DNA of 64,000 bases from Oscillospiraceae bacterium. GTDB lineage: Bacteria > Bacillota > Clostridia > Oscillospirales > SIG627. Where the stretch lies: positions 475-64,474 of the forward strand of contig SVQQ01000007.1 in the NCBI GenBank assembly GCA_015065265.1, in the 5' to 3' direction. Positions 3,498-57,957 of the stretch are shown one piece after another. The translations under genes and the position numbers were made by a program. The stretch's first letter is position 1. Each line of letters starts with the position of its first letter. The notes beneath the pieces are model-generated. The model was not told the origin of the DNA. It did no database searches and saw nothing but the letters and a program-made list of their open reading frames with translations.

Positions 3498-3504
3498 CTG
3501 TTAT

Positions 3505-4151
3505 CCTTTCTTCGTCTCTTTATGTGCATTTTTGGTTAAAATACAGAAATGAAAAGATTATTAGAATTTTAATAAAACAAAATCATATACAAAAATTGAA
3601 TTTTTTATAGTTTTCTTTATATACAGTTTTCTGCGGAAAGAAATTCAAAGAATTTCTTGCAATTTTATCCAATTTCATTTCTTCGCGTGTTGCTCGGACT
3701 GCTGTACCCTTGTACAGCGACGCCGTCGCACTCCGCGATTTTTCCTCAAAAATGCTCTACTTTTTTGGGCTGTGGGCTGAGATTTAAAGATTAAAAATTT
3801 TATTTTCCCTCAAAGATACTCTCTCACTCTTTTCGGGTTGTGGGCTAATGTCTTTACAATGGATAGCAGAAGACGCGAGTACTAGCAAAAATCGTCTTTA
3901 ATCCTTGTATATAGGCTAATTTCAAATAAATTTATTGAAGATTTGCAAAGCAAATCAACCTTAATTCTGCATTTTGCATTTTGCATTCTGCATTTATAAT
4001 AATTGAAGATTTGCGAAGCAAATCAACCTTAATTTTACATTTGAGCGGGGGATTTTTGTGGTGTAGCGTTTAGCGGAACCTACAAAAATTCAAGCCATAC
4101 AGGGAGCGTAGCCAAGCATTTTGCGAGGCTAAAGCGAGTCGTACGGCATTT
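3505..4151 (+). repeat. Repeat locus A: m1 variant, m3, m4, two m5, m6, two half copies of the palindromic element, m7
   Basis: Direct matches to other loci. Region 3505-3732 resembles 49383-49610 and 4038-4151 resembles 49607-49721. Hairpins lie at 3638-3658 (AAGAAATTC/GAATTTCTT) and 3701-3718 (GCTGTAC/GTACAGC). m6 (3853-3919) resembles 34031-34098 inverted. Confidence 0.9.
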
Positions 4152-4172
4152 ACTGTTTCGTGCAACACATAT

Positions 4173-4201
4173 AATATACCATAGGTTTACTATGAATTCA
4201 A
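4173..4201 (-). promoter_or_regulatory. Candidate sigma-A promoter of the Rrf2-nifS-nifU operon
   Basis: The minus strand reads TTGAAT, a 17-nt spacer, then TGgTATATT (extended -10). Module m7 starts about 20 nt downstream. Confidence 0.4.
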
Positions 4202-14248: not shown

Positions 14249-14665
14249 ATGGACATAAGAACTATTACTGCCATCATATACTGCATTACAGGGGGTATTA
14301 CCCTTGGGTTTATACTGTCTCTTATTACGAGACTTTTTGTAGGCCCTTTTGTGAGCAGTATTTTAAACAGTGATGCAAAAGACGAAGACAGCGCCAAAAC
14401 CCTTAAAGAATTGAAGGTAAAAAGGGGAGTTTTACTGTCGCTTTTTATAAAAAGCAGTTCTACTTTAAAGAGAATTGTAAGTTCCGACAGTGAAAAAGAG
14501 CCCCTTTCAAAAAGGCGTTTCTGGATAGCGGAAGAATATACAAAAAAGGCGAAAAGCCTTTACGGAACTGAGAAAATCTCCCTTTTGTCAATCTTGATTT
14601 TCGCCCTTCTTCTCGCCCTTGTCGTTCTCCTTTGCACTCGTATTTTACCTATGATAGAAATATAA
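14249..14665 (+). CDS. Hypothetical membrane protein
   Basis: Has an N-terminal and a C-terminal TM helix and starts 1 nt after the serS stop. Confidence 0.5.
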   Translation: MDIRTITAIIYCITGGITLGFILSLITRLFVGPFVSSILNSDAKDEDSAKTLKELKVKRGVLLSLFIKSSSTLKRIVSSDSEKEPLSKRRFWIAEEYTKKAKSLYGTEKISLLSILIFALLLALVVLLCTRILPMIEI

Positions 14666-14679
14666 GGAGGTAGAAACAC

Positions 14680-15642
14680 TTGGCACAAGAAAAGAAACTT
14701 CATCCCCTTGGGGTAGTTTTTATAGTGGCACTTGCTTTGGTAATTGTTACCTTTACAGTGCTTTATACCGCTTTGGGATTGAGATACGTAAATGACAAGA
14801 CCCACGAACTCAAATTTGTAGGGCGTGTGGAAAACGGTGTTGCAGTGTCGGGAAAAATCTACTATTACGACGGTAGAGTCGGAACTCTCGATGCTGAGAA
14901 TAAGACTATTCTCTTTGAAAACGCCGACAAGTATTCAGGTGCACTTTCAGGGTATCTGCCTCACGGAAAAGGAACTCTTACAACTGCCGAGGGAACTATT
15001 TTTGAAGGTGATTTTTACGAAGGTTATTGCACAGGCAACGCTACAATTTCCTACAAAAACGGAGACGTTTATATAGGTGAAGTAAATCACTCCAAACGTG
15101 AAGGCTTCGGCAAATACATAAAGGCAGACGGAACAGTTTATGAGGGCTCTTTCAGAGACGGTGAGAAAAATGGAATCGGAAGAACCGCTTTTACCGATGG
15201 GTCTGTCTATATCGGTCAGTATAAAGACTCTATAAAGGACGGAGTGGGCGCTTATCTTTTTGATGATAGCGACATTTACGTGGGAGAATTCAAAGAGGAC
15301 AAACGTACAGGCAAAGGTATATACGTCTGGTCGAAGAGCGAAGCGTTTACAAGTGAGTTTGATACTCTCTTTAACGTAACTCTTGACGAAAGTTTTGTCT
15401 CTTCCTTTATTTCTTACTTTGAAGGGGACTTTAAAAATCACTTCAAAGATGCAGAATATACCGAGCCCGTTACAGAAAATCCCTTCTTTTTGTCCTTTGA
15501 AAACGTCCTTAAAAGAAGTCAGATTGAAATGTATATCGGTGATTTTTACGAAAATCAACTCACAGGTGAAGGAACTTACAGGTGGCTCTCGGGCAGAGTA
15601 TACTCCGGTACATTCAAAGACGGCGTAATTGTTGAGGAATGA
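14680..15642 (+). CDS. MORN-repeat protein with N-terminal membrane anchor
   Basis: TTG start 9 nt after AAGGAGG. It carries repeated Y(x)G(x)(x)(x)(x)GxxxGxG MORN units, for example YIGEVNHSKREGFGKY and YEGSFRDGEKNGIGRT. Confidence 0.75.
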   Translation: MAQEKKLHPLGVVFIVALALVIVTFTVLYTALGLRYVNDKTHELKFVGRVENGVAVSGKIYYYDGRVGTLDAENKTILFENADKYSGALSGYLPHGKGTLTTAEGTIFEGDFYEGYCTGNATISYKNGDVYIGEVNHSKREGFGKYIKADGTVYEGSFRDGEKNGIGRTAFTDGSVYIGQYKDSIKDGVGAYLFDDSDIYVGEFKEDKRTGKGIYVWSKSEAFTSEFDTLFNVTLDESFVSSFISYFEGDFKNHFKDAEYTEPVTENPFFLSFENVLKRSQIEMYIGDFYENQLTGEGTYRWLSGRVYSGTFKDGVIVEE

Positions 15643-15643
15643 C

Positions 15644-16210
15644 CGTCTTTTTGGTTAAAACAGTTAATATAGTGCAGAATGCAGAATGCAAAATGCTGAA
15701 TTAAGGTTGATTTGCTTCGCAAATCTTCATTCATATACGTTTAGCGGAAAATCCGCTAAACGCACATAAATCAATTCAAATGCGAAGCTTTTGTTCCTTT
15801 ATTCTGCATTTTGCATTTTGCACTCTGCATTTACAACATACACACTAGAATATCAAATATATAAAGCGTAGCCTATGAAAATAGACTACGCTTTACTATG
15901 TCTTTATAATATCATTTCATTTCGGTTTTCACCAAAGAGACGAAAACCTCCGCACACAACCCGAAAAGAAAAGAGTATCTTTGAGGGAAAATCAACGTTT
16001 TACGAAGCCGTCGGCGTACTTACGTACGGCAGTGCGAGTAAACGTTGAAGAAATGAAATTGGAATTGTTCAAAAGAAGTTCGCAGAACTTCTTACATTAG
16101 AAAATTGTTGATTTGAGTGGCAAATACAAAAGAAATAGCCTATAAAAAATAGGCTACACCTTATTAAAAAAACACAACCCCATTTCATTTCGCTTTTCAC
16201 CAAAGAGACG
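15644..16210 (-). repeat. Repeat locus B. From the S41 stop on the minus strand: m1-m2-m3-m4-m5-m1-m2-palindromic element. A truncated + oriented m1 abuts the MORN gene stop.
   Basis: m1 copies lie at 15644-15661 (+), 15914-15942 and 16181-16210 (-). m2 lies at 15862-15895 with a degenerate copy at 16131-16165. m3 is at 16073-16093, m4 at 16003-16060 and m5 at 15943-15993. Confidence 0.9.
15671..15832 (-). mobile_element. ~163-bp palindromic MITE-like element (full copy)
   Basis: Imperfect ~34-bp terminal inverted repeats made of TGCARAA heptamers flank three hairpins: GATTTGC/GCAAATC, GTTTAGCGGA/TCCGCTAAAC and CAAATGC/GCATTTG. Confidence 0.6.
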
Positions 16211-16211
16211 T

Positions 16212-17795
16212 TCATCTATAAATTCTCATCACATAATCGAGGACGGAAAAGGTTTGAAGGTACGCGCTCTTCTCCATCATTTCTATCTCTGACATAATGG
16301 TAAAATAGGTTTCGTCATTAAGGGCTCCCGTAACGTCAAGCCCAAAGGCTATCTGGAAAGCAATTATTGCCGAAGTGGTATCTTTATCAAAGGTACTGTC
16401 AGACTTTGCGGGATTTAAAAAGTCCAGTATTTCAAGGCGCATTTCAAGTCCTTTAACCCACTTGTTTGTACTGCCTTCTACTGCATTTTTGTAGTTCTGG
16501 TAGGTAAAGGTGGGAAGATTTTCGGGAAGGTGATATTTCTCAAATTCGTCCTCTACCTTTTCGTCGGGAATTATACCCTTTTCGTTATAGGTGTTTCCCT
16601 CAATATCATATGCCACAAAAGACGTAATGCCTGAAGTTGTTTTATCAATAAAAGTGGTAACCTTCTGTGCGACGCCTTTTCCGTAGGTTGTAGTTCCGTA
16701 AATTCTTGCGCCAGACACAAGTCGCAAAGTGTTTGCAAAAATTTCGGAGGCAGAGGCGGTACCTTTATTTACCATAATGCCGATTTCTTCAAAATCGTAA
16801 CCGTTGCCAATAGAATGGTATACGCTGTAATTCTTTATTCCCTCTCTGCCCATAGAAAAGAGCGCTTGGCGGTCGTTGCCTGTAAACTTAGACATAATAG
16901 ACCCTGCAACAGACAGGTCTCCTCCCGAATTGTTCCTCAAATCAACAATAATCTTGCGGTATCCCGCCCCCCACGCCTTGTCAAGTTCTGCGCTGACTTC
17001 GGTTACTGTTTCGTCGTACATAAAACTGTTAATATCAAGGTAAATAAGGTTGTTTTCGGGATAAAGTTTTATAGTATATTCAGGGAAATACGACACTGTG
17101 CGAAGCAGAGTGTAACTTTTTATTTCCCCCTCTCTTTCAAGGGTAATGTCAAGGGTTTGAGCATCTTCTTCAACAGTTAAAATAATAGCGCTCATAGCGT
17201 TGAAGCCAACGCCTGAAACGTCGTATCCGTTAAAGGAAAGTATCTTGTCGCCTGGGAGAATTCCTGCACTTTCGGCGGGAGAGCCCTTCGCTACCATTTC
17301 AACAAAGATACCCTTGGAGTCGTATCCGTCGCTTTCCTCTCCCCATATCATAGAAATTCCTATTCCACGACTTGCGGTGGGAGAGAACATTTGCTGGGTG
17401 CGCTCTTCATTAGCGTAAAAACTGAATTTGTCAAGAAGTGCGAAAAGGGCGTTGTAGGTTTCGTCCATATTGTTTATGTCAATTTTATCTATGCTTGAAA
17501 TAAACTCATGAAAAAGTTTGTCACTGTCAAAGCCCTTGTAATAGTATGCGGGGATTACCTGTAAAAAATATTCAAGTTTCTTTGTCAAAATCTTGTTTTT
17601 ACTGTTATCCACAACGTTTAAAAGTGAGAAAAGTTGCTCGTACGTCATATCTTCCGTTACAGGAATCACGCCTTGATGCAGACTTTCATAAAAATCGGCG
17701 TCATATTCGGCGCTCACCGTTAAAAGCATGGTGGAAATAACTATTACCAGGGCAACAAGGGTTTTAAGGGTTCTTTTAATCATATTTTTCTCCAT
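16212..17795 (-). CDS. S41 family C-terminal processing peptidase with PDZ and peptidoglycan-binding domains
   Basis: Has an N-terminal signal anchor, a PDZ domain (GSPAESAGILPGDKILSFNG), the S41 core (NKGTASASEIF) and C-terminal PG_binding_1-like sequence (TTSAIIAFQIAFGLDVTG). Confidence 0.8.
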   Translation of the reverse strand: MEKNMIKRTLKTLVALVIVISTMLLTVSAEYDADFYESLHQGVIPVTEDMTYEQLFSLLNVVDNSKNKILTKKLEYFLQVIPAYYYKGFDSDKLFHEFISSIDKIDINNMDETYNALFALLDKFSFYANEERTQQMFSPTASRGIGISMIWGEESDGYDSKGIFVEMVAKGSPAESAGILPGDKILSFNGYDVSGVGFNAMSAIILTVEEDAQTLDITLEREGEIKSYTLLRTVSYFPEYTIKLYPENNLIYLDINSFMYDETVTEVSAELDKAWGAGYRKIIVDLRNNSGGDLSVAGSIMSKFTGNDRQALFSMGREGIKNYSVYHSIGNGYDFEEIGIMVNKGTASASEIFANTLRLVSGARIYGTTTYGKGVAQKVTTFIDKTTSGITSFVAYDIEGNTYNEKGIIPDEKVEDEFEKYHLPENLPTFTYQNYKNAVEGSTNKWVKGLEMRLEILDFLNPAKSDSTFDKDTTSAIIAFQIAFGLDVTGALNDETYFTIMSEIEMMEKSAYLQTFSVLDYVMRIYR

Positions 17796-33847: not shown

Positions 33848-33883
33848 AAAGGACAGAGAACTAATGTTCTCTGTCCTTTTTTT
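33848..33883 (+). terminator. Intrinsic terminator
   Basis: AAAGGACAGAGAAC-TAAT-GTTCTCTGTCCTTT forms a 14-bp stem followed by TTTT. Confidence 0.85.
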
Positions 33884-33901
33884 AGTTGTATAGAAAATGG
33901 A

Positions 33902-34427
33902 AAGTGCAGAATGCAGAATGCAAAATGCAGAATTAAGGAACAAATGCTTCGCATTTGAGTTGATTTTATTATAAGTTTAGCGGAAAATCCGCTAAACACT
34001 TAAAAAACTTAATCATTATAAAAGAGCGTTTTAGTCTATATACAAAGACTAAATCAACTTTTTGACAGTACTCACGTCTTCCGCTTTTTATTGTAAAAAC
34101 TTTAGTTCACAGCCCGTAAAAGCAAGAGTATCTTTGAGGGAAAATCGCTAATATAATTCAGAGTGCAGAATGATGAGTGCAGAGTTAAGGACGATTTGCT
34201 TTGCAAATCTTCAATAATTATAAGTTTAGCGGAAAATCCGCTAAACGCACATAAATCAATTCAAATGCGAAGCATTTGTTCCTTTATTCTGCATTTTGCA
34301 TTTTGCACTCTGCATTACAATATCCACAGAAGAATAGGCAACAAATAAAGCATAGTCCATTTTCATAGACTATGCTTTACTAAATCTCTTATAATGTCAT
34401 TTCATTTCGGTTTTCACCAAAGAGACG
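33902..34427 (-). repeat. Repeat locus C. From the RNHCP gene on the minus strand: m1-m2-palindromic element-m5-m6, then an inverted half element.
   Basis: m1 lies at 34397-34427, m2 at 34346-34379 (AAAGCATAGTC/GACTATGCTTT), m5 at 34101-34148 and m6 at 34031-34098. A half element (+ orientation) lies at 33902-33997. Confidence 0.9.
34157..34316 (-). mobile_element. ~163-bp palindromic MITE-like element (full copy)
   Basis: Near-identical to 57131-57293 and to the reverse complement of 52290-52452. Confidence 0.6.
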
Positions 34428-45667: not shown

Positions 45668-45720
45668 TTATTTTTCCTTCCAAAAAATTTTCTACATATA
45701 TAATAATATTCAACAGTTAC

Positions 45721-45749
45721 ATTATAACACATTCTCCTCAATCTTGCAA
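45721..45749 (-). promoter_or_regulatory. Candidate sigma-A promoter of dnaA
   Basis: The minus strand reads TTGCAA, a 17-nt spacer, then TGtTATAAT (extended -10). A repeat module m1 starts 11 nt upstream of the -35. Confidence 0.55.
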
Positions 45750-45759
45750 GAGTTAAATT

Positions 45760-46125
45760 CGTATCTTTGGTTAAAAACGAAATGAAAAAACTACTTAATT
45801 TTTAATAGAGTGCACTTTGTTTTTATGGACTATACTTTGCTGTTCTCTTTCTTTTCGGGTTGTGTGCTTAAGTTTTTGTCTTTTTGGTTAAAAACGAAAT
45901 GATATCATATACGTTTAGCGGATTTTCCGCTAAACTTATATAATATTTAATTCAAATGCGAAGCATTTGTTCCTAAATTCAGCATTCAGCATTCTGCACT
46001 CTGCATTTAAGATGTTTAGCGGATTTTCCGCTAAACTTATATAAAAAAGTGCAGTCTATTTTTCATAGGCTACACTTTTTGAAGTTATATTAACTTTTTA
46101 TTTTTATGTTTTCACCAGAAAGACG
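45760..46125. repeat. Repeat locus D. Forward: m1, degenerate m2, m5, m1, half palindromic element, extra GTTTAGCGG hairpin, m2. An inverted m1 abuts the radical-SAM gene stop.
   Basis: m1 copies lie at 45760-45788 and 45877-45903 (+) and at 46095-46125 (-). The hairpin GTTTAGCGGATTTTCCGCTAAAC occurs at 45913-45935 and 46014-46036. A TIR lies at 45970-46008 and m2 at 46044-46080. Confidence 0.85.
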
Positions 46126-47084
46126 TCAACGGAAAATTCGTCAGACAACTTTTTGAGGTTAACCTTCTTTTGCCCAAGGTATTGGGACAGGAGTTTTTCA
46201 GGAACTTCAAGAAAGACCTTTTCACCTTTTTTAAGGTCCATTTTGCGAAGTTTTTCCCGCATTTCGTCAAGGCGTAACCGAGATAAAATTAACTCCCCTA
46301 TTGCATCGTGATAGTCTCCTGCAATAACGTCGTCGGAGTGTAAACCTTCTCCGGATTGAAGGCCTATTCGGATAACGTCGACGTTGTTTTTTAAAAAAAG
46401 ACCAACAACTTTTGCCCCACGCTCCACAGTTTCGTCAAGGGTAGGCGGTTGATACTTTCCCGAAAGATAAAGGTCACCAAGGGCGGTGGAACTAAATACG
46501 ACAGTGGGGTAAACTCGGGCGCTTGTAGCCCCGTGGGAGATTATGTCAAGGGCAGTCTGCCTTTCATTTTCCTCGTTTCCCCCAAACATACCCGTCATCA
46601 TCTGCCCTGTCAGTTCAAAACCCTCTTTTACAATCAAATCCATTGCGTAAAGTGAGGTTTTGGCGTCGTGACCTCTCTTGTTAAGGGTCAAAACTTCGTC
46701 GTTTGTAGACTGAATTCCAAGTTCGATATTTGCAACTTTGTAAAACTTTAAAATACTGAGTATCTCTTCGTCAATATAATCGGGTCTGGTGGAAAGTCTT
46801 ATGGACGAAACTCGCCCCTCTTTGATGAATTTATTTGCGGTTTCAAGAAGTTTTATCATAAGAGAACGCTCAATTCCTGTAAAACTTCCGCCAAAAAATG
46901 CCACTTGAGGCACAAAGGACGAAATTGTCCCAAGTGCCTTTTCGATTTCTTCTTCAACTCCGTCCACGTCAAAGGAAGTTCTTCCCGAAATAGTCCTTTG
47001 ATTACAGAAAACACAATCGTTGGGGCATCCTATGTGGGGTACGAAAATAGGGATATTGGCGTGACGTTTCATGCCCTCTTCCAC
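46104..47084 (-). CDS. Radical SAM protein (ELP3/COG1243-like)
   Basis: Contains IPIFVPHIGCPNDCVFCNQ (CxxxCxxC). The last 7 codons (DVFLVKT) are encoded by repeat module m1. It overlaps cysS by 16 nt. Confidence 0.75.
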   Translation of the reverse strand: MEEGMKRHANIPIFVPHIGCPNDCVFCNQRTISGRTSFDVDGVEEEIEKALGTISSFVPQVAFFGGSFTGIERSLMIKLLETANKFIKEGRVSSIRLSTRPDYIDEEILSILKFYKVANIELGIQSTNDEVLTLNKRGHDAKTSLYAMDLIVKEGFELTGQMMTGMFGGNEENERQTALDIISHGATSARVYPTVVFSSTALGDLYLSGKYQPPTLDETVERGAKVVGLFLKNNVDVIRIGLQSGEGLHSDDVIAGDYHDAIGELILSRLRLDEMREKLRKMDLKKGEKVFLEVPEKLLSQYLGQKKVNLKKLSDEFSVDVFLVKT

Positions 47085-48460
47085 TTAGTTCCCTGAGGGG
47101 TATCTTCAAGGACAATTCCCTTGTTTTTGAGTTCTTCTCTGATTTCGTCGGCTCTCGCATAGTTCTTTTCTTTCTTTGCCGAAATTCTCTCGGAAATCAG
47201 GTCTTCAATCCACTTTGTGTCCTCTTCTTCTTCGGGAACGAGGAAGCCCATAAGTCCTACAAGTTCCTTATATATAGCGTAAATTTCTTCAAGGTCGCCT
47301 TTTGTAAGAGAAGTGTCGGAAATAAGGGTGTTAATCTTTCTTATCATTTCAAAAATGGCAGAAATTCCGTCTGCGGTATTGAAATCGTCGTCCATTGCGA
47401 CAATGAATTTTTCGCGGTATTCACCCAGTGCATTTATGTCTTCGGTCTTTGTGACACCGCCTTCTTTTGCATTTTTAAGAGCGTACTTTATTCCGTTTTC
47501 ACAGTTGTACATACGTTCAAGAGAAGCCTTTGACTGCTCTAAAATGTCTGCAGAGAAGTTAATGGGACTTCTGTACTGAGCAGAGACAAGGAAAAAGCGA
47601 ATTGCAGGATAGGAGTACTTTGCCGCAGCGTCACGGACGGTGAAGAAATTGCCAAGAGACTTTGACATTTTCTTGTTATCCACGTTTATATATCCGTTGT
47701 GGATAAAGGCACGGCAGAAAGGAACGCCGAAAGCGGCTTCAGACTGTGCAACTTCGTTTTCGTGATGTGGGAAAGTCAGGTCCTGACCGCCTCCGTGAAG
47801 GTCGATTGTCTTTCCGAGATATTTATCAACCATTGCCGAGCACTCGATATGCCAACCCGGTCTTCCTTTTCCCCAAGGGGAGTCCCAATAGGGTTCACCC
47901 TCTTTGTACGCTTTCCACAGAGCGAAGTCAAGGGGGTCGTGTTTTACGTCGTTTACGTCAATTCTCGCTCCGCTTTCAAGGTCGTCTACGTCAAAACCGC
48001 CAAGTCTGCCATAGTCCTTGAATTTACGTGCCGAGAAGTAAACGTCACCGTTTTCGGCAGGGTAAGCGTAGCCTTTTTCGATAAGGATTTTAATGATATT
48101 TATAATTTCTTCCATATTTTCCGTGGCTCTTGGATGGAAGGTGGCGGGAGTTATGCCAAGGCCTTTTGCATCGGTGAAATATTCTTCAATATACTTGTCT
48201 GCAACTGCCTTGACTGTGGTGTTTTCTTCCTTTGCTCTCTTTATCATTTTGTCGTCGATATCGGTGAAATTCTGTACGAAAGTTACCTTGTTTCCTCTAT
48301 ATTCGAGGTATCGGCGAAGCAGGTCGAAAATAACGAAACAACGTGCGTTTCCTACGTGGAAATAGTTATAAACCGTGGGGCCACAGGCATACATTCTCAC
48401 GGTGTTATCCTTAAAAACAAGTTCCTCTTTTTTCTTTGTAAGTGAATTATAAAACTTCAT
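47069..48460 (-). CDS. cysS: Cysteinyl-tRNA synthetase
   Basis: Contains HVGNARC (HIGH) and KMSKS. Confidence 0.95.
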
Positions 48461-48461
48461 A

Positions 48462-49094
48462 TTATTCTCCTTTTTCCAGTGTCTCTATTTTCTTTTGTAG
48501 TTTTTCAATTTCCGCCCTCATTCTGCAAAGTTCTTGGGAAACGGGGTCGGGAATGTGTATCTGGTCAAGGTCGGATTGTCTCTGACCGTCCCTTTTTACA
48601 ACTCGTGCAGGAGCGCCAACAGCAGTTGAATCGGGGGGAATTTCGGTAAGAACCACTGACCCTGCGGCAATTTTTGCCCTGTCCCCTACTTTGAAAGGGC
48701 CAAGAACCTTTGCCCCTGCGCCAACGAGGACACCGTTACCTAAGGTGGGATGTCTCTTTCCAATATCTTTTCCCGTACCGCCAAGGGTTACTCCTTGGTA
48801 AAGTGTACATTCATCACCAATTTCGGCAGTTTCGCCAATAACTACCCCTGAACCGTGGTCAATGAACAGCCCTCTGCCAATAGTCGCACCGGGGTGTATT
48901 TCAATGCCTGTAAAAAATCTGCCCGTTTGGGAGATAAGTCTGGCAATAAAGAAAAGTCGGTGTCTATAAAAGAAATTCGCAATTCTGTAATAAATCAAGG
49001 CGTGAAAGCCTGAATACAGGAAGAAAATTTCAAAAATATTTCTCGCGGCGGGGTCGCGGGATTTAATCGACTTCAAATCCTCAAATATCTTCAT
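48462..49094 (-). CDS. cysE: Serine O-acetyltransferase
   Basis: Has hexapeptide repeats and GIEIHPGATIG. Confidence 0.9.
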   Translation of the reverse strand: MKIFEDLKSIKSRDPAARNIFEIFFLYSGFHALIYYRIANFFYRHRLFFIARLISQTGRFFTGIEIHPGATIGRGLFIDHGSGVVIGETAEIGDECTLYQGVTLGGTGKDIGKRHPTLGNGVLVGAGAKVLGPFKVGDRAKIAAGSVVLTEIPPDSTAVGAPARVVKRDGQRQSDLDQIHIPDPVSQELCRMRAEIEKLQKKIETLEKGE

Positions 49095-49101
49095 TTAGGT
49101 T

Positions 49102-49721
49102 CCTTTCTTCGTCTCTTTGGTGAAAAACGAAATGAAATTGGGTATAGAATATAGTAAGGCGTAATCTGTTTTTAAAGTTTATGCTTTGTTTGTCATCTGT
49201 TCCAATATATAATTTTTTCAAAGTAAGAAGTTCTGCGAACTTCTTTTCATCTATTTCAATTTCATTTCTTCGTTTCTTGCTCGGACTACTGTACATAAGT
49301 ACAGTTACGCCTTCGCAATAAACGATTTTCCCTCAAAGATACTCTCTCTTTTCATTTGGGTTATGTGTTGAAGGCTCAAAGTCCTTTCTTCGTCTCTTTG
49401 GTGTGCATTTTTGGTTAAAATACAGAAATGAAAAGGTTATTAAGTTTTTAATAAAACAAAAACCATTCACAAATCTTAACTTTTTCAAAGCATTCTATAT
49501 ATACAGTTTTCTTCGGAAAGAAATTCTACGAATTTCTCTTGAATTTTTTATTTCATTTCTTCGCGTGTTGCTCGGACTGGCGTACCATTGTACGCCGACG
49601 CCTTCGCACTTGAGCGGGGGATTTTTGTGGTGTAGCGTTTAGCGAAACCTACAAAAATTCAAGCCATACAGGGAGCGTAGCCGAGCAGTGTGTGAGGCTA
49701 AAGCGAGTCGGACTGCATTTT
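49102..49721 (+). repeat. Repeat locus E, lying between cysE and its T-box: m1, degenerate m2, m3, m4, m5, then an m1 variant, m3 variant, m4, m7
   Basis: m1 lies at 49110-49138 and 49391-49435, m3 at 49225-49245 and 49519-49537, m4 hairpins at 49288-49305 and 49579-49596, m5 at 49321-49382 and m7 at 49607-49721. Confidence 0.9.
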
Positions 49722-49771
49722 ACATATCTTCCTTATGTATTATATAAGGGGAAGCGGGTTTTGGGTAAAAT

Positions 49772-49990
49772 AAAAAACCGCCCTCTGTCAAGAGGCGCGG
49801 TTGCGCGGTTCCACTCTTATTTATAACTTTTTCTTTTTTGCTTGTCCCGATTTCTCGGCGGCCGCACTTTCACAAAATAAGCAATAGACGTTCACACCAA
49901 ACACGTCCTCTCTGAATTGCTTTTTTCTTGTTACTCTTGCCAAACAGACTATCCTCTGCCGACTTGCAATATATTAAATTCAAAGTAGTT
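49772..49990 (-). promoter_or_regulatory. T-box riboswitch leader, probably Cys-specific
   Basis: The minus strand reads AAGAG-TGGAACC-GCGC-AACC-GCGC-CTCTT. This is the canonical antiterminator with a 7-nt UGGNACC bulge, where N=A fits the tRNA-Cys discriminator U73. It overlaps the terminator CCGCG(C)CTCT-TGAC-AGAGGGCGG-TTTTTT. Upstream elements are AGAGAG and GGTG. A candidate UGC specifier lies at 49864-49866. Confidence 0.85.
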
Positions 49991-50349
49991 CAGTATGAGT
50001 ATAGCATATAATAATACAAAAAGCAAGTCACAGGAGCACCCTATACTTTATTTTTATTTACGATTATCCGTAATTTGTGTTTTTGGATTTTGGGGCAAAA
50101 AAACACAAGATATAGTGTCTTTCACTTAAAAATCGCTCCCAAAAACTCAACTTCACAGGTCGGCTTTGGCAAATTTGCGGAAGGATGAGCAAAAATTTTT
50201 AGCAAAGTGACAAAAATACAGGCTTGTTTTTGGGCAAAATTAAGAGGATTTGATAATATTTTTACGAAAACACGTAAAATTTAACAAAAAAGCGTCAAGA
50301 TTTTGGTGGAAAATTGACGGAAAAAGACGGGTCAGGAAAATATTGTGAT

Positions 50350-50378: not shown

Positions 50379-50419
50379 AACTACACTAAGAAAGATATGC
50401 CATAAAGGAGGTGTTACCC

Positions 50420-52177
50420 ATGGGACAGGATAATCTCGAGAACTCTCAGACAGCGGAGTCTTCAACTATCAACGAAAGTGGAAGAAGACCTGCGAGAAGA
50501 CAGACTTTTACCGGTCTTTACCGTACGTTCAGGCGTTCGGGATTGGGTAAAATCGACTCGGCATTCAACGCTCTTTACATATGCCAGACCAACAGGTGTT
50601 GTCGTGAGAACTTGAATTCCAACAACGTGGGCGACGGATTCTTTAGTCATCCCACAGGTTATTACAGTTCCAAGGCAGAGAGCATCAGACGTGCGGCGAA
50701 AACAAGAACTCTTAGTTTTCTTGAAAGGGTTGCGAAAATTCTTTCCCCTCTTACAAGAAGTGTTGAGAAAAAGGGCAATTCACCTGTAATTTTCGACAAC
50801 AGTGAGGCTTGTCTTAAAAAGGCGCTCTGCTTGTTAAAACGCTCTTCAAAGGCGGTTTGTGTAACAGCTGCTGCACTGCTTTTCGCAATTTCCATTTACA
50901 TAAACAGTCAAAAGAACACAGTTGTGGAAGTTAAGATAGACGGTGTGGTAATTGGCGAAGTTAAGAGTCTTGAAACGGTAGACACCGCGCTCGACCGAGT
51001 TAATGCCAAGATTTCTTCTCTTATGGGCGAGGTTTTCACTTTCCCTCATGAAGTTTCCTTTACTATAAAGAACAAGAACAGTTCCGATTGTATGGATATA
51101 GACAGCGTTTGCGACGTTTTATATACTTACACTGAAGAATACATAACCACAGCCTATGGGTTGTACGTTGATTCTCATCTTATTGCGGTTTTGAATTCCA
51201 GAGACGATATTGTATCCGTCCTTGACACCGTTAAATCCGAGCACATGGCACTGACGGGTGAAGATGAGGATATTGCAAATAATATCGAGATAAAGTATCA
51301 GGAATACGCTAAAAACAGTATTATAGACAAGGAAACACTCGTTTCTATGTTCTCGGTTGTCCCTGAAAAGAAAGAGGATAACGCAAGAGTTGACGCGCTT
51401 CTTTCTTCTAACGAAAACGTTTCCTTTACTCTTGGCGGCGAGATTGTACCCCTCGGACAACGCCTTGCAGAAGCGGTATCCGGCGAAGAAGGACAAAACA
51501 CAATCGTCCTTGACTTTGTAACTTATGAAGAAGTAACTCTTCGAGAGACTGTTCCTTTTGAGACCGAGTATATTACCGACGACACTTATTATACAAGTCA
51601 GAAGGTTGTACAACGTTCAGGTAAAAACGGAAAGGCTAGTAACACTTACCGAGTAAAATACGTAAACGGAGTTGAAGACTCCCGAGTACTTATTAATTCT
51701 ACAACTATTCAGGAAGGACGTTCTTGCATTATAAAGGTTGGAACGAGAATTCTTCCCGAAACTATGACCCTTGATGAAAATGACGGAAAATATATGATAA
51801 ATCCTGTTCCCTTGGCGTATGTCAGCGACTACTTCGGTTGGCGTACACTTAACGGAAGACGTACTTATCACCAAGGTCTTGACCTTGCCGCCATGAAGGG
51901 AACTCCCATTTATGCTGCGGCATCGGGAGAAGTAATTTTGGCAAGTTACAGTTCTTCCTACGGATACGTAGTGAAAATTGAACATGCCGACGGACTTGTT
52001 ACCGTCTATGCCCATTCTTCAAAACTCCTTGTAAAAGTTGGAGACGTAGTTGAACAGGGCGAAGAAATCGCCAGAGTTGGCTCAACAGGTTATTCCTTTG
52101 GATACCACTGTCATTTTGAAGTTATAAAAGACGGAGAAAAGGTTGACCCTGAAGATTATATTTACACTCTTGAGTGA
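50420..52177 (+). CDS. M23 family metallopeptidase with G5 domain and membrane anchor
   Basis: ATG at 50420 lies 8 nt after AAGGAGG; the ORF-track GTG at 50411 is inside the RBS. The G5-like segment is QKVVQRSGKNGKASNTYRVKYVNG. The M23 motifs are HQGLDLAA...HFEV. Confidence 0.8.
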   Translation: MGQDNLENSQTAESSTINESGRRPARRQTFTGLYRTFRRSGLGKIDSAFNALYICQTNRCCRENLNSNNVGDGFFSHPTGYYSSKAESIRRAAKTRTLSFLERVAKILSPLTRSVEKKGNSPVIFDNSEACLKKALCLLKRSSKAVCVTAAALLFAISIYINSQKNTVVEVKIDGVVIGEVKSLETVDTALDRVNAKISSLMGEVFTFPHEVSFTIKNKNSSDCMDIDSVCDVLYTYTEEYITTAYGLYVDSHLIAVLNSRDDIVSVLDTVKSEHMALTGEDEDIANNIEIKYQEYAKNSIIDKETLVSMFSVVPEKKEDNARVDALLSSNENVSFTLGGEIVPLGQRLAEAVSGEEGQNTIVLDFVTYEEVTLRETVPFETEYITDDTYYTSQKVVQRSGKNGKASNTYRVKYVNGVEDSRVLINSTTIQEGRSCIIKVGTRILPETMTLDENDGKYMINPVPLAYVSDYFGWRTLNGRRTYHQGLDLAAMKGTPIYAAASGEVILASYSSSYGYVVKIEHADGLVTVYAHSSKLLVKVGDVVEQGEEIARVGSTGYSFGYHCHFEVIKDGEKVDPEDYIYTLE

Positions 52178-52178
52178 T

Positions 52179-52596
52179 TGTCTCTTTGGTGAAAATACAG
52201 AAATGAAATGATATTATAAAGACATAGTAAAGCGTAGTCTTTAAAAAAGGCTACGCTTTATATATTTGATATTCTAGTGTGTATGTTGTAAATGCAGAGT
52301 GCAAAATGCAAAATGCAGAATAAAGGAACAAATGCTTCGCATTTGAGTTAATTTTATTATACGTTTAGCGGATTTTCCGCTAAACTTATAATTATTGAAG
52401 ATTTGCAAAGCAAATCAACCTTAATTCTGCACTCATCATTCTGCACTCTGAATTATATTAGCGATTTTCCCTCAAAGATACTCTTCTCTTTTCATTTAGG
52501 CTGTGTGTTGAAAGTTTGAGTCTCTTTGGCTAAAACCGAAATGAAATTATAATAAATAGTAAAGCATAGTCTATAAAAATAGGCTATGCTTTATAT
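52179..52596 (+). repeat. Repeat locus F: m1-m2-palindromic element-m5-m1-m2, starting 2 nt after the M23 stop
   Basis: m1 lies at 52179-52209 and 52518-52547, m2 at 52228-52260 and 52560-52593, and m5 at 52461-52517. Confidence 0.9.
52290..52452 (+). mobile_element. ~163-bp palindromic MITE-like element (full copy, reference orientation)
   Basis: The left TIR is TGCAGAGTGCAAAATGCAAAATGCAGAATAAAGG. The right TIR, reverse-complemented, is TTCAGAGTGCAGAATGATGAGTGCAGAATTAAGG, matching at 27 of 34 positions. Three internal hairpins are centred on GTTTAGCGGATTTTCCGCTAAAC. Confidence 0.6.
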
Positions 52597-56175: not shown

Positions 56176-56303
56176 TTTAGCGGAAAATCCGCTAAACACG
56201 GAGAATGTTTTTTCAAAAAAGAGACAAAAAAGTATAGCCTGTTTATATAGGCTATACTTTTTAAAATCTAAATAAACTTTTTTAGGCTTTAACCAAAGAG
56301 ACG
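56176..56303 (-). repeat. Repeat locus H (minimal): GTTTAGCGG-type hairpin, m2, partial m1 abutting the mgtC stop
   Basis: TTTAGCGGAAAATCCGCTAAA lies at 56176-56196. The m2 variant AAAAAGTATAGCCT/AGGCTATACTTTTT lies at 56227-56265. The m1 remnant GGCTTTAACCAAAGAGACG lies at 56285-56303. Confidence 0.8.
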
Positions 56304-57005
56304 TCAGAAACTAATTGCTTTGATTTCTTTTTCTGCATTAAAGAGATCAAGCACCTTCGCCGCATCAAGATCAGCATCTCCTGCAACCGACATAATAATA
56401 GTGAATACACCGTCGTCGCCAAGGGAAATTTTAGTGTCTCTTACGACGATATTGTTTTCTGCAAGAACTTCTTTAAGTCTTTCTATTGAAGCGTCGTTGT
56501 TTTCAAGTCTTATAACTACGTCAAAGGAATTGTCGTTGGCAAGGATTTTGTCAAATCCGATAAGGAAGGTATGGAAAAGAATCTGTATTACGATAATTAT
56601 AACCGTTGCCACAACACCCGTTATGTAAAGTCCGCAACCGATTGCGAGTCCTACGCCCGCTGTCGCCCAGATACCTGCCGCTGTGGTAAGACCTTTAATA
56701 TTTGTGCCTTTAACGAAAATCATACCTGCGCCAAGGAAGGATATTCCCGTTACAACGTTTGATGCAATTCTCGATGCGTCTGCTCGAAGTCCCTCAAACT
56801 GCAAGATATCAAAAAATCCGTATTTTGACACTATAATAATAAGGGCTGCGCCTAACGCAACGATTACGTGAGTTCTGAATCCTGCGTCTTTCTGTCTCAA
56901 AGTTCTTTCTATTCCTATTGCGCCACCGCAAAGACAGGCAATAAGTATTCTGATTATGTACATCCATTCGGAATTAACGTCTGTAAAAATCTTCAAAAAT
57001 TCCAA
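56304..57005 (-). CDS. mgtC: MgtC/SapB family membrane protein with C-terminal ACT-like domain
   Basis: Has 4-5 TM helices with GAIGIERTLRQKDAGFRTH, the MgtC family signature. Confidence 0.8.
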   Translation of the reverse strand: MEFLKIFTDVNSEWMYIIRILIACLCGGAIGIERTLRQKDAGFRTHVIVALGAALIIIVSKYGFFDILQFEGLRADASRIASNVVTGISFLGAGMIFVKGTNIKGLTTAAGIWATAGVGLAIGCGLYITGVVATVIIIVIQILFHTFLIGFDKILANDNSFDVVIRLENNDASIERLKEVLAENNIVVRDTKISLGDDGVFTIIMSVAGDADLDAAKVLDLFNAEKEIKAISF

Positions 57006-57102: not shown

Positions 57103-57942
57103 TATTTTTGAGGGAAAATCGCTAATATAATTCAGAGTGCAGAATGATGAGTGCAGAATTAAGGTTGATTTGCTTTGCAAATCTTCAATAATTATAAGTT
57201 TAGCGGAAAATCCGCTAAACTTATATAAAAACCAACTCAAATGCGAAGCATTTGTTCCTTTATTCTGCATTTTGCATTTTGCACTCTGCATTTACAACAT
57301 ACACACTAGAATATCAAATATATAAAGCGTAGCATATTTTCATAAGCTACGCTTTACTAAATCTTTATACTAACTTTTCATTTCTGTATTTTCACCAAAG
57401 AGACGAAAATTTAAGCACACAGCCCGAAAAGAGAAGAGTATCTTTGAGGGAAAATCGCGGAGTGCGAAGGCGTCGGCGTACAATGGTACGCCAGTCCGAG
57501 CAACACGCGAAGAAATGAAATTGGAATAATTAAAAAGAAGTTCGTGAGAACTTCTTACATTAAAAGAGTTGTACAAAGAAAAAGAAAATAAATAAAGCGT
57601 AGCCTTTTTTAAAGACTACGCTTTACTATGTCTTTATAATATCATTTCATTTCTGTATTTTCACCAAAAAGACGAAAATTTAAGCACACAGTTTAAATGA
57701 AAAGAGAGAGTATTTTTGAGGGAAAATTCGCAATCCCGAAGCCCCGTCGCTGTACTTACGTACAGCAGTGCGAGGGAGGGCGAAAGAAATGAAAATAAAT
57801 CAAGAAAATTTCGAAGAAATTTTTTCATCAGAAGAAGTGTAAAATAACACAAAAAAACAAATAAAGCGTAGCATATTTTCATAAGCTACGCTTTACTAAA
57901 TCTTTATACTAACTTTTCATTTCGGTTTTAACCAAAAAGACG
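57103..57942 (-). repeat. Repeat locus G. From the fba stop on the minus strand: two full m1-m2-m3-m4-m5 units, then m1-m2-palindromic element-m5(partial).
   Basis: m1 copies lie at 57915-57942, 57641-57674 and 57375-57405, a period of about 270 bp. m2 lies at 57862-57895, 57593-57625 and 57323-57356. m4 hairpins lie at 57749-57766 and 57475-57492. m3 lies at 57802-57826 and 57535-57556. Confidence 0.92.
57131..57293 (-). mobile_element. ~163-bp palindromic MITE-like element (full copy)
   Basis: About 95% identical by eye to the reverse complement of 52290-52452. Confidence 0.6.
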
Positions 57943-57957
57943 ATAAAAGATACTAAA

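Follow-up and report, generated by a model that had tools for sequence, protein, structure and literature searches.

The cysE-cysS locus and its T-box leader

The window analysed here is a 64,000-nucleotide (nt) stretch of the metagenome-assembled genome of an uncultured gut Oscillospiraceae bacterium (GenBank assembly GCA_015065265.1, contig SVQQ01000007.1, positions 475 to 64,474 of the forward strand; about 40% G+C), and the subject is a minus-strand operon of cysE, cysS and a radical-SAM gene together with the cysteine T-box leader that precedes it. The cysE start codon is separated from the T-box terminator by 677 nt (positions 49095-49771; 672 nt when the distance is scripted to the end of the T-rich run), and this spacer is filled by intergenic repeat modules. 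The account we prefer, with a probability of roughly 60%, is that an ordinary Cys-tRNA T-box attenuator of cysE-cysS, and with them of the radical-SAM gene, had its ancestral spacer filled by these repeats, that the repeats are read through, and that their terminator-like module, m2, was filtered out of the leader. Coordinates of the features are collected in Table 1.

The CysE protein (MBE6700949.1) occurs in identical form on 23 contigs from independent ENA and JGI samples. Five of these loci were fetched (L081-L085); across stretches of up to 3.5 kb that take in the T-box and the spacer, their identity to the window is 99.97% or more. Because near-identical loci recur in independent samples, the arrangement is not an assembly artefact. 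The same contigs carried no polymorphism by which the insertions could be dated or ordered. A gene for an M23 peptidase diverges from cysE at 50411.

We searched the region with the Rfam T-box model RF00230, which matched the leader with 59.9 bits (E 3.8e-12 when 1.5 kb was searched and 3.1e-11 when 12.4 kb was). This is under the gathering score of 93, a threshold that goes with the full architecture of stem II, stem IIA/B and stem III; the match is reported only with permissive filters and is absent from the default Rfam scan. The six closest orthologous leaders upstream of cysE score 49-60.5 bits, and one of these 49-60-bit orthologues directly abuts cysE. Since the closest orthologues score in this range, the low score is, on this comparison, a matter of compact, clade-wide architecture and not of decay. 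More distant cysE leaders reach 85.7 and 98.8 bits.

Motif content and covariation confirm the T-box as real and Cys-specific. The stem I motifs AAGAGUAA (GA/K-turn, AGTA box), CAGAGA (AG bulge) and UUGGUGUGA (distal loop, GGUGUGA in the window) are invariant across 7 aligned leaders, and the specifier context is conserved as GAA-RG-UGC-R in L001-L006. In this 7-leader alignment 16 of 30 consensus pairs show compensatory changes, two of them in the window's own stem I, and the window agrees with 86 of the 95 columns that are invariant in its relatives, which in a leave-one-out comparison is no worse than L001 or L006. The antiterminator AAGAG[UGGAACC]GCGC-AACC-GCGC-CUCUU folds at -8.8 kcal/mol, and the discriminator U73 of tRNA-Cys fits the A of the UGGAACC bulge. 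The terminator, found by two scans, folds at -19.3 kcal/mol (-18.4 in the scan) and shares its 3' arm with the antiterminator, so that the two are mutually exclusive. UGC is the specifier usually seen for Cys, and in Firmicutes cysES is usually under the control of a T-box (PMC2940859; see also PMC2494555). An earlier note on this DNA, made from the letters alone, had described a canonical T-box pointing at cysE-cysS and had looked to RF00230 and the specifier for support. A real, Cys-specific T-box with all defining motifs is present, with the RF00230 match and the UGC specifier, but "canonical" is too strong for an element that scores 59.9 bits where 93 are needed.

The probable leader promoter aligns with the TTGAC-N17-TGnTAnAAT promoters of L001-L006; a consensus promoter scan missed it, its -35 matching at only 3 of 6 positions. 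Upstream of this promoter are two palindromes, ACACTATATCTTGTGT and TTACGGATAATCGTAA, at 50103-50118 and 50058-50073, both kept at the equivalent places in L004-L006. They may be operators, serving either the T-box promoter or the M23 peptidase gene that diverges from cysE.

Table 1. Features of the cysE-cysS region and of the related iscR leader, in window positions.
Feature	Position	Strand	Remarks
Probable leader promoter	49998-50026	minus	TTGCTT, 17-nt spacer, TGc-TATACT (extended -10)
T-box leader	49788-49954	minus	stem I, specifier, T-box sequence; RF00230
Specifier UGC	49866-49864	minus	GAA-AG-UGC-G, read from sequence
T-box sequence	49822-49803	minus	UGGA bulge at 49813-49810
T-box intrinsic terminator	49767-49799	minus	stem 49799-49778, T-run 49777-49772, then ATTTT; tail TTTTTTATTTT
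Unmatched segment, 46 nt	49721-49766	minus	small hairpin; perfect TATAAT 49744-49739, poor -35
m7, left end of cassette	49610-49720	minus	two hairpins; 94% to 4041-4151, about 99% to L100:11451-11564
Remainder of cassette	49382-49609	minus	85% to iscR leader 3504-3732; about 97% to polA copy
m4 hairpin in cassette	49550-49609	minus	
m3 variant hairpin in cassette	about 49516-49538	minus	
Fully decayed m2 in cassette	49446-49490	minus	pair counts
m1 variant end in cassette, GAGACGAAGAAAGGA	49382-49396	minus	internal Shine-Dalgarno-like copy
Proximal unit, distal part	49197-49381	minus	m5 49323-49372, m4 hairpin 49259-49319, m3 hairpin 49225-49245
Decayed m2 in proximal unit	49149-49193	minus	nhmmer, folding, pair count
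m1	49101-49143	minus	end GAGACGAAGAAAGGA holds cysE Shine-Dalgarno AAAGGA 49106-49101, then ACCTAA (6 nt), ATG 49094
cysE	48462-49094	minus	NCBIfam TIGR01172, 2.2e-70; ATG at 49094
cysS	47069-48460	minus	NCBIfam TIGR00435, 1.4e-174
Radical-SAM gene	46104-47084	minus	third gene of the regulated operon 46104-49094
Intact m2-type hairpin	46043-46085	minus	directly after radical-SAM stop; tail TTTTTTAT; 23.5 bits, -15.7 kcal/mol
dnaA	44279-45667	minus	
iscR leader, paralogous cassette	3504-4201	minus	promoter/operator 4201-4173; iscR ATG 3497

The spacer in related loci

Eighty related cysE loci were fetched, 36 of them with a recognisable T-box motif and T-run upstream of cysE. In these 36 the T-run and the start codon are a median of 52 nt and at most 515 nt apart, against 672 nt for the window by the same script. 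The gap is therefore abnormal, as the earlier note had held. Among the closest relatives the distance ranges from 19 to 515 nt and the inserts are mutually unrelated; four of the seven loci above 100 nt belong to the window's nearest relatives. Because the T-run of L001 is only 19 nt from the start codon, with no insert, the comparison identifies the long spacer as a derived insertion.

The inserts of the relatives are of several kinds. The insert of L006 is a compact inverted-repeat element whose ends are heptamer repeats (L006:2466-2594), L002 has heptamer-repeat ends that flank a 117-amino-acid PF05635 (23S rRNA intervening-sequence protein) gene between T-box and cysE (L002:3487-3985), and L003 and L004 carry other hairpin modules. 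None of the modules of the window's spacer was found in the 80 related cysE loci, and a search of the CysS 90% cluster for closer relatives returned the L001-L006 species or similar ones, with no intermediate states. L087 (3350-3500) and L089 (3256-3500) also have hairpin-rich inserts of 151-245 nt between cysE and cysS, two genes that adjoin each other in the window.

Repeat modules of the spacer

Of the 677 nt of spacer, 504 match elsewhere in the window (E<0.01), and the earlier view that repeat modules fill the interval holds. The 64 kb contain 42 direct-repeat families, including a multi-module unit of about 270 nt that forms tandem arrays (for example at 57316-57957). These modular intergenic repeats, in which short modules recur in variable combinations as in BOX and BIME elements, have more copies in the 20-kb flanks. 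The spacer itself consists of two repeat parts, a cassette of about 340 nt (m7, m4, an m3 variant, a dead m2 and an m1 variant) and a proximal unit of about 285 nt (m5, m4, m3, a decayed m2 and m1). The proximal unit is overall only about 75% identical to other units. Within a unit, GAAGAAAUGAAAU pairs with AUUUCAUUUC around m3-m2. Both m3 and m4 hairpins fold intact in the cysE leader units, and the leader as a whole folds as a chain of local hairpins at -155 kcal/mol (z = -3.8 against shuffles).

Rfam at permissive thresholds over the repeat regions gave only spurious miRNA-type hairpin matches, with no family fitting any module. A scan for the m1 anchor pattern in a metagenome collection that does not include this species gave one unrelated chance match (L086), and scans of viral contigs for the m7 core and m1 gave no matches. 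Small open reading frames (ORFs) of 71, 51 and 79 amino acids in the spacer have no Pfam match and no Shine-Dalgarno sequence and were treated as spurious. The 71-amino-acid ORF (49081-49296, minus strand) is annotated publicly in L081 and L083-L085; it falls wholly within repeat modules and overlaps the start of cysE, and the annotation is probably spurious.

The same cassette upstream of iscR and polA

We extended the genome 10 kb past each window end, to about 83 kb in all, and give flanking positions as L100 coordinates. Two paralogues of the cysE cassette (49720-49382) were found. One is the iscR leader at 4151-3504, which is 85-94% identical to the cysE cassette except for a middle block of about 310 nt that the latter lacks; cassette and middle block together make up the promoter-to-ATG distance of iscR, about 670 nt in the window. 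Five related species keep the iscR promoter/operator TTGAATTC.TA.TAAACCTATGGTATAAT, at a distance from the start codon of 25-35 nt, or about 150 nt in the case of L095/L096. Because these relatives have the same promoter near the ATG, the cassette at iscR was inserted between the promoter and the ribosome-binding site.

The other copy, L100:11451-12020, lies just outside the window, left of its position 1, between an nth-like gene (HhH-GPD) and polA, and is 97-99% identical to the cysE copy (49382-49720). The extra middle block measures 210-310 nt in the iscR and polA cassettes. A relative has nth and polA 3 nt apart, with the polA Shine-Dalgarno inside the upstream ORF; at the locus studied here the last 8 or so codons of the upstream ORF are replaced, and the ORF now ends inside m7. 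The terminus of the polA cassette is directly 5' of AAAGGA, 6 nt before the true start (MEKLLIVDGNS). Orthologous sites that are empty or otherwise filled were found for cysE (L001 and others), iscR (L093, L097-L099) and nth-polA (L102). No target-site duplication was seen at the three cassette junctions, and no clear full-length terminal inverted repeats. Since the cassette separates iscR from its promoter and also lies within the nth-polA operon, it is evidently tolerated in transcribed positions.

The copies share a fixed geometry. GAGACGAAGAAAGGA occurs four times in the 83 kb, three times exactly 6 nt before an ATG (cysE, iscR and polA) and once inside the cysE leader, and the m1 terminus (..ACCAAAGAGACG) is immediately 5' of the Shine-Dalgarno core at the three genes and near the stops of at least five others. 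The m1 ends near stops and the fixed 6-nt Shine-Dalgarno geometry at three starts suggest that the repeat arrays dock onto ORF boundaries. That such boundaries are actually targeted, by the repeats themselves or by whatever machinery mobilises them, is a doubtful proposition; if it were true, the family would stand for a class of non-coding elements whose insertions fall at translation signals and can rebuild 5' untranslated regions without silencing the gene.

The stop-proximal m1 termini are 0-4 nt from a TGA at 16212, 56304 and 52177, a TAA at L100:17466 and the TAG of polA. The m1 sites abutting stops are at 16181-16214, 56274-56306 and 52175-52208 in the window and at L100:17436-17468, 14593-14642 and 15358-15393, and the CNNM ORF (L100:15358) runs about 35 nt into m1.

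Such a recurrent arrangement would also be expected if the cassette were a functional leader element, an RNA- or protein-binding platform for common post-transcriptional control of cysE, iscRSU and polA. Its orientation and the 6-nt distance from Shine-Dalgarno to ATG are alike at all three genes, the cysE leader folds better than its shuffles, and m7 is conserved across species (L089-L091) with helices that covary with the window copies. However, the four m7 copies in 83 kb lie in both orientations at unrelated loci, one of them upstream of a CNNM transporter gene, and in another species m7 stands between cysE and cysS. The cassette is also absent from the orthologous leaders of all relatives examined, the three target genes have no obvious common regulon, and no Rfam family matches. 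We regard common control through the cassette as very improbable.

A narrower possibility, that m7 is a cysteine or iron-sulphur (Fe-S) regulatory element, came from its presence at cysE, at iscR and in the cysE-cysS spacer of the other species. It was rejected on the copies at polA and near the CNNM gene, the two orientations and the lack of m7 at the relatives' iscR. As a dispersed element of about 110 nt, m7 was located at 4041-4151 and 49610-49720 in the window, at L100:11451-11564 and 17169-17273, and at L089:3347-3465. Its two hairpins covary between species (TAGCC/GGCTA versus TATCC/GGATA), its conserved single-stranded blocks are CAAAAATTCAAGCC.T.CAGGGAGC and GCGAGTCG, it has no Rfam match, and it occurs in both orientations relative to genes.

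The m2 hairpin at gene 3' ends and in leaders

Intact copies of m2 were located with an nhmmer profile and folding. Ten are in the window (at 15855, 16136, 34339, 46043, 52211, 52554, 56222, 57316, 57586 and 57855) and four in the flanks (L100:14925, 15308, 17018 and 17384). All 14 fold at -10 to -22 kcal/mol in both orientations with 10-12 of 13 Watson-Crick pairs, and the stem covariation score of 0.259, compared with 0.160 in shuffles, was reached by none of 500 shuffles. Every intact copy lies in an intergenic region that contains a gene 3' end, whereas the three copies in divergent 5'/5' regions are all dead. An independent scan of one 3'-end region found seven terminator-like sites, m2 copies included, where 1.4 were expected. 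A stable hairpin, a U-rich tract and enrichment at 3' ends make m2 SPRITE-like, with termination activity as a prediction. The copy directly after the radical-SAM stop is probably the operon terminator.

The leader copies are different: at iscR, as at cysE (49149-49193 and 49446-49490), they keep only 6-9 of 13 pairs and have an interrupted GC core. The earlier note had called the m2 next to cysE degenerate, and so it is: the proximal copy has 9 of 13 Watson-Crick pairs with four mismatches and a longest run of 3, scores 9.3 bits with nhmmer against 28-55 bits for intact copies, and folds at -0.9 kcal/mol on the cysE-sense strand, compared with -10 to -22 kcal/mol elsewhere. On the opposite strand it folds at -13.4 kcal/mol by means of G.U pairs; this asymmetry comes from only 2-3 substitutions and is not significant. 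The same note was mistaken in giving the second unit no m2 at all, as a fully decayed remnant is present at 49446-49490. Its contrast between m2 at gene 3' ends and m2 in the leader stands, with 14 covarying copies on one side and both leader slots dead on the other. In the polA cassette no m2 was detected at E up to 1, and pairs were not counted there.

The note had held that this contrast fits selection against termination inside a leader. That reading is partly supported: leader m2 is dead, and two scans found no strong sense-strand terminator in the spacer besides the T-box's own. The most likely reading of the m2 pattern, and the most economical, is a filter that keeps only terminator-less variants upstream of genes.

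Read-through of the repeat leader

Put together, the reading that we prefer would run as follows. The ancestral T-run-to-start spacer would have been short, roughly 20-60 nt, and species-specific modular intergenic repeats, 677 nt in two parts, would then have filled it, with AAAGGA at the repeat end acting as the Shine-Dalgarno sequence 6 nt before the cysE ATG. When tRNA-Cys is uncharged the antiterminator would form, and RNA polymerase would transcribe the whole repeat leader, a chain of hairpins without a strong same-strand terminator, as far as cysE. Terminator-like m2 would be non-functional in both leader units, because terminator-less variants alone would persist upstream of genes, and intact m2 would be kept at gene 3' ends as bidirectional terminators. 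We infer read-through, continued T-box control and selection as the cause of the m2 loss from the sequence features described above.

Several observations weigh against this reading, some bearing on the loss of m2 and others on read-through. In each of the three cassette copies the distal m2 is just as dead; its loss is one event that came with the cassette, and it did not decay where it now lies. The argument from relative rates, that m2 decays faster than its neighbour modules, is weakened by the proximal unit: since the whole unit is only about 75% identical to others and looks old overall, its m2 is not clearly evolving faster than the rest. A dead m2 at 45806-45841 lies outside any leader, upstream of the predicted dnaA promoter (45749-45721), and is just as compatible with relaxed selection. 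In L003 the T-box-cysE insert itself contains a terminator-like hairpin with seven Ts (L003:3905-3950), so hairpins are not always kept out of insertions at this site. The leader-m2 statistics, moreover, rest on 2-3 independent events.

The first four of these points would be accommodated if the loss of m2 in leaders were neutral, either because m2 decays at every site that does not need it for termination or because a founder cassette already lacked it and the loss hitch-hiked. We take this to be a real though lesser possibility. It is at odds with the old, diverged m2 copies at 16136, 46043 and 56222, which keep their stem through compensatory changes, with the intact m3 and m4 hairpins in the same leader units, and with the placing of all 14 intact copies in regions that contain a gene 3' end, the three copies in divergent 5'/5' regions being dead.

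As for read-through, Rho-dependent termination could be a risk in an untranslated leader of 677 nt, the first 160 nt or so of which are C-rich and G-poor. Conservation of the T-box may be no proof of continued function, because the cysE and polA cassette copies are 97-99% identical and the insertion is possibly too recent for decay. Two weak promoter-like sites also lie in the spacer: the TATAAT at 49744-49739, 28 nt after the T-run, and TTTAAA-17-TATATT at 49176-49148, inside the decayed m2 and about 54 nt from the ATG. These sites raise the question of whether the inserted repeats carry or created a promoter, leaving cysE-cysS largely independent of a T-box that is recently orphaned or only partly effective, a scheme that would suit a cassette standing before iscR and, inside an operon, before polA as a portable promoter. 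We think it unlikely. Promoter-like sites in the region are at chance (4 found, 4.3 expected), the TATAAT site has a -35 matching at 3 of 6 positions and no TG extension, and no promoter-like candidate common to the three cassette copies was found. Neither the iscR promoter/operator nor the T-box has been lost from its place upstream of the cassette, and the T-box lineage has compensatory changes in stem I.

Relation to known systems

In Bacillus subtilis, cysE-cysS has a Cys T-box leader. Clostridium perfringens also has T-box(Cys) genes (PMC2940859). The leader described here resembles the Firmicutes Cys T-box leaders of cysES and cysS in its genes, its UGC specifier, the T-box sequence with its UGGA bulge and the terminator/antiterminator logic. 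It differs in that stem II/IIA-B and stem III are reduced, a property of the whole clade, and in the distance between terminator and ORF, 677 nt here against tens of nt there.

The nearest parallel to the arrangement is the BOX element in the trp T-box leader of Streptococcus pneumoniae, which is co-transcribed in a leader of nearly 1 kb with regulation apparently retained (Croucher et al. 2011, PMC3049150). There too a modular interspersed repeat is inserted in a T-box-controlled 5' untranslated region. The pneumococcal BOX, however, lies between two tandem T-boxes, while the repeat described here lies between a single T-box terminator and the ribosome-binding site, is unrelated to BOX in sequence, and ends precisely at the Shine-Dalgarno sequence. 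SPRITE, a pneumococcal repeat that resembles a Rho-independent terminator, is enriched at 3' ends (PMC3049150), and m2 is like it in having a hairpin with a U-rich tail and in being enriched beside the 3' ends of convergent genes. In contrast to SPRITE and REP/BIME, m2 is one module of a tandem-array unit of about 270 nt, and no sequence likeness to them was looked for or seen. REP and BIME are mosaic elements of enterobacteria, and the family found here, like BIMEs and BOX, is pieced together from short modules. No transposase and no RAYT partner of the family was identified.

Transposable elements of the miniature inverted-repeat kind (MITEs), such as the Correia elements of Neisseria, can alter the expression of neighbouring genes. 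The present repeats resemble them in being non-coding, multi-copy, present or absent at orthologous sites and inserted near gene starts. They differ in that no target-site duplication and no clear full-length terminal inverted repeats were found for the cassette, and in a terminus that is fixed 5' of the Shine-Dalgarno core at three genes or 0-4 nt from the stops of five.

T-box control of cysES and repeats in T-box leaders are both already known, and nothing in the regulatory logic is novel. The unusual points are a terminator-to-ORF spacer longer than in any of the 36 related loci that have a recognisable T-box, and a cassette that recurs directly before three essential or housekeeping genes with a fixed Shine-Dalgarno geometry and with its terminator-like module disabled in these copies. 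The position between terminator and ribosome-binding site, and the fixed docking of the repeat end at Shine-Dalgarno sequences and stops, set the family apart from the precedents. The locus is a natural test case for the limit on the distance between an attenuator and its gene, for selection that filters mobile repeats by their transcriptional side-effects, and for repeats that target gene boundaries. It also carries a warning for annotation: compact T-boxes fall under the Rfam cut-off, and ORFs called inside such repeats are likely to be spurious.

Other features of the region

The spacer between the radical-SAM gene and dnaA (45668-46103) contains the intact m2-type terminator, a heptamer element, two m1 copies and the dead m2 at 45806-45841. 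The strong promoter-like site for dnaA at 45749-45721 reads TTGCAA-17-TGnTATAAT.

The heptamer element belongs to a second repeat family, with copies in the window at 3927-4062, 15648-15831, 33880-33999, 34132-34316, 45908-46038, 52290-52454 and 57106-57292. Each of its inverted ends is a row of 3-4 GCAGAAT-like heptamers, after which come AAGGTTG and a short hairpin; between the ends, the window copies have a central TTTAGCGGAAAATCCGCTAAAC hairpin. The heptamer-repeat inserts of L006 and L002 described above belong here too. Heptamer and hairpin sequences of this family vary among species while the architecture is kept.

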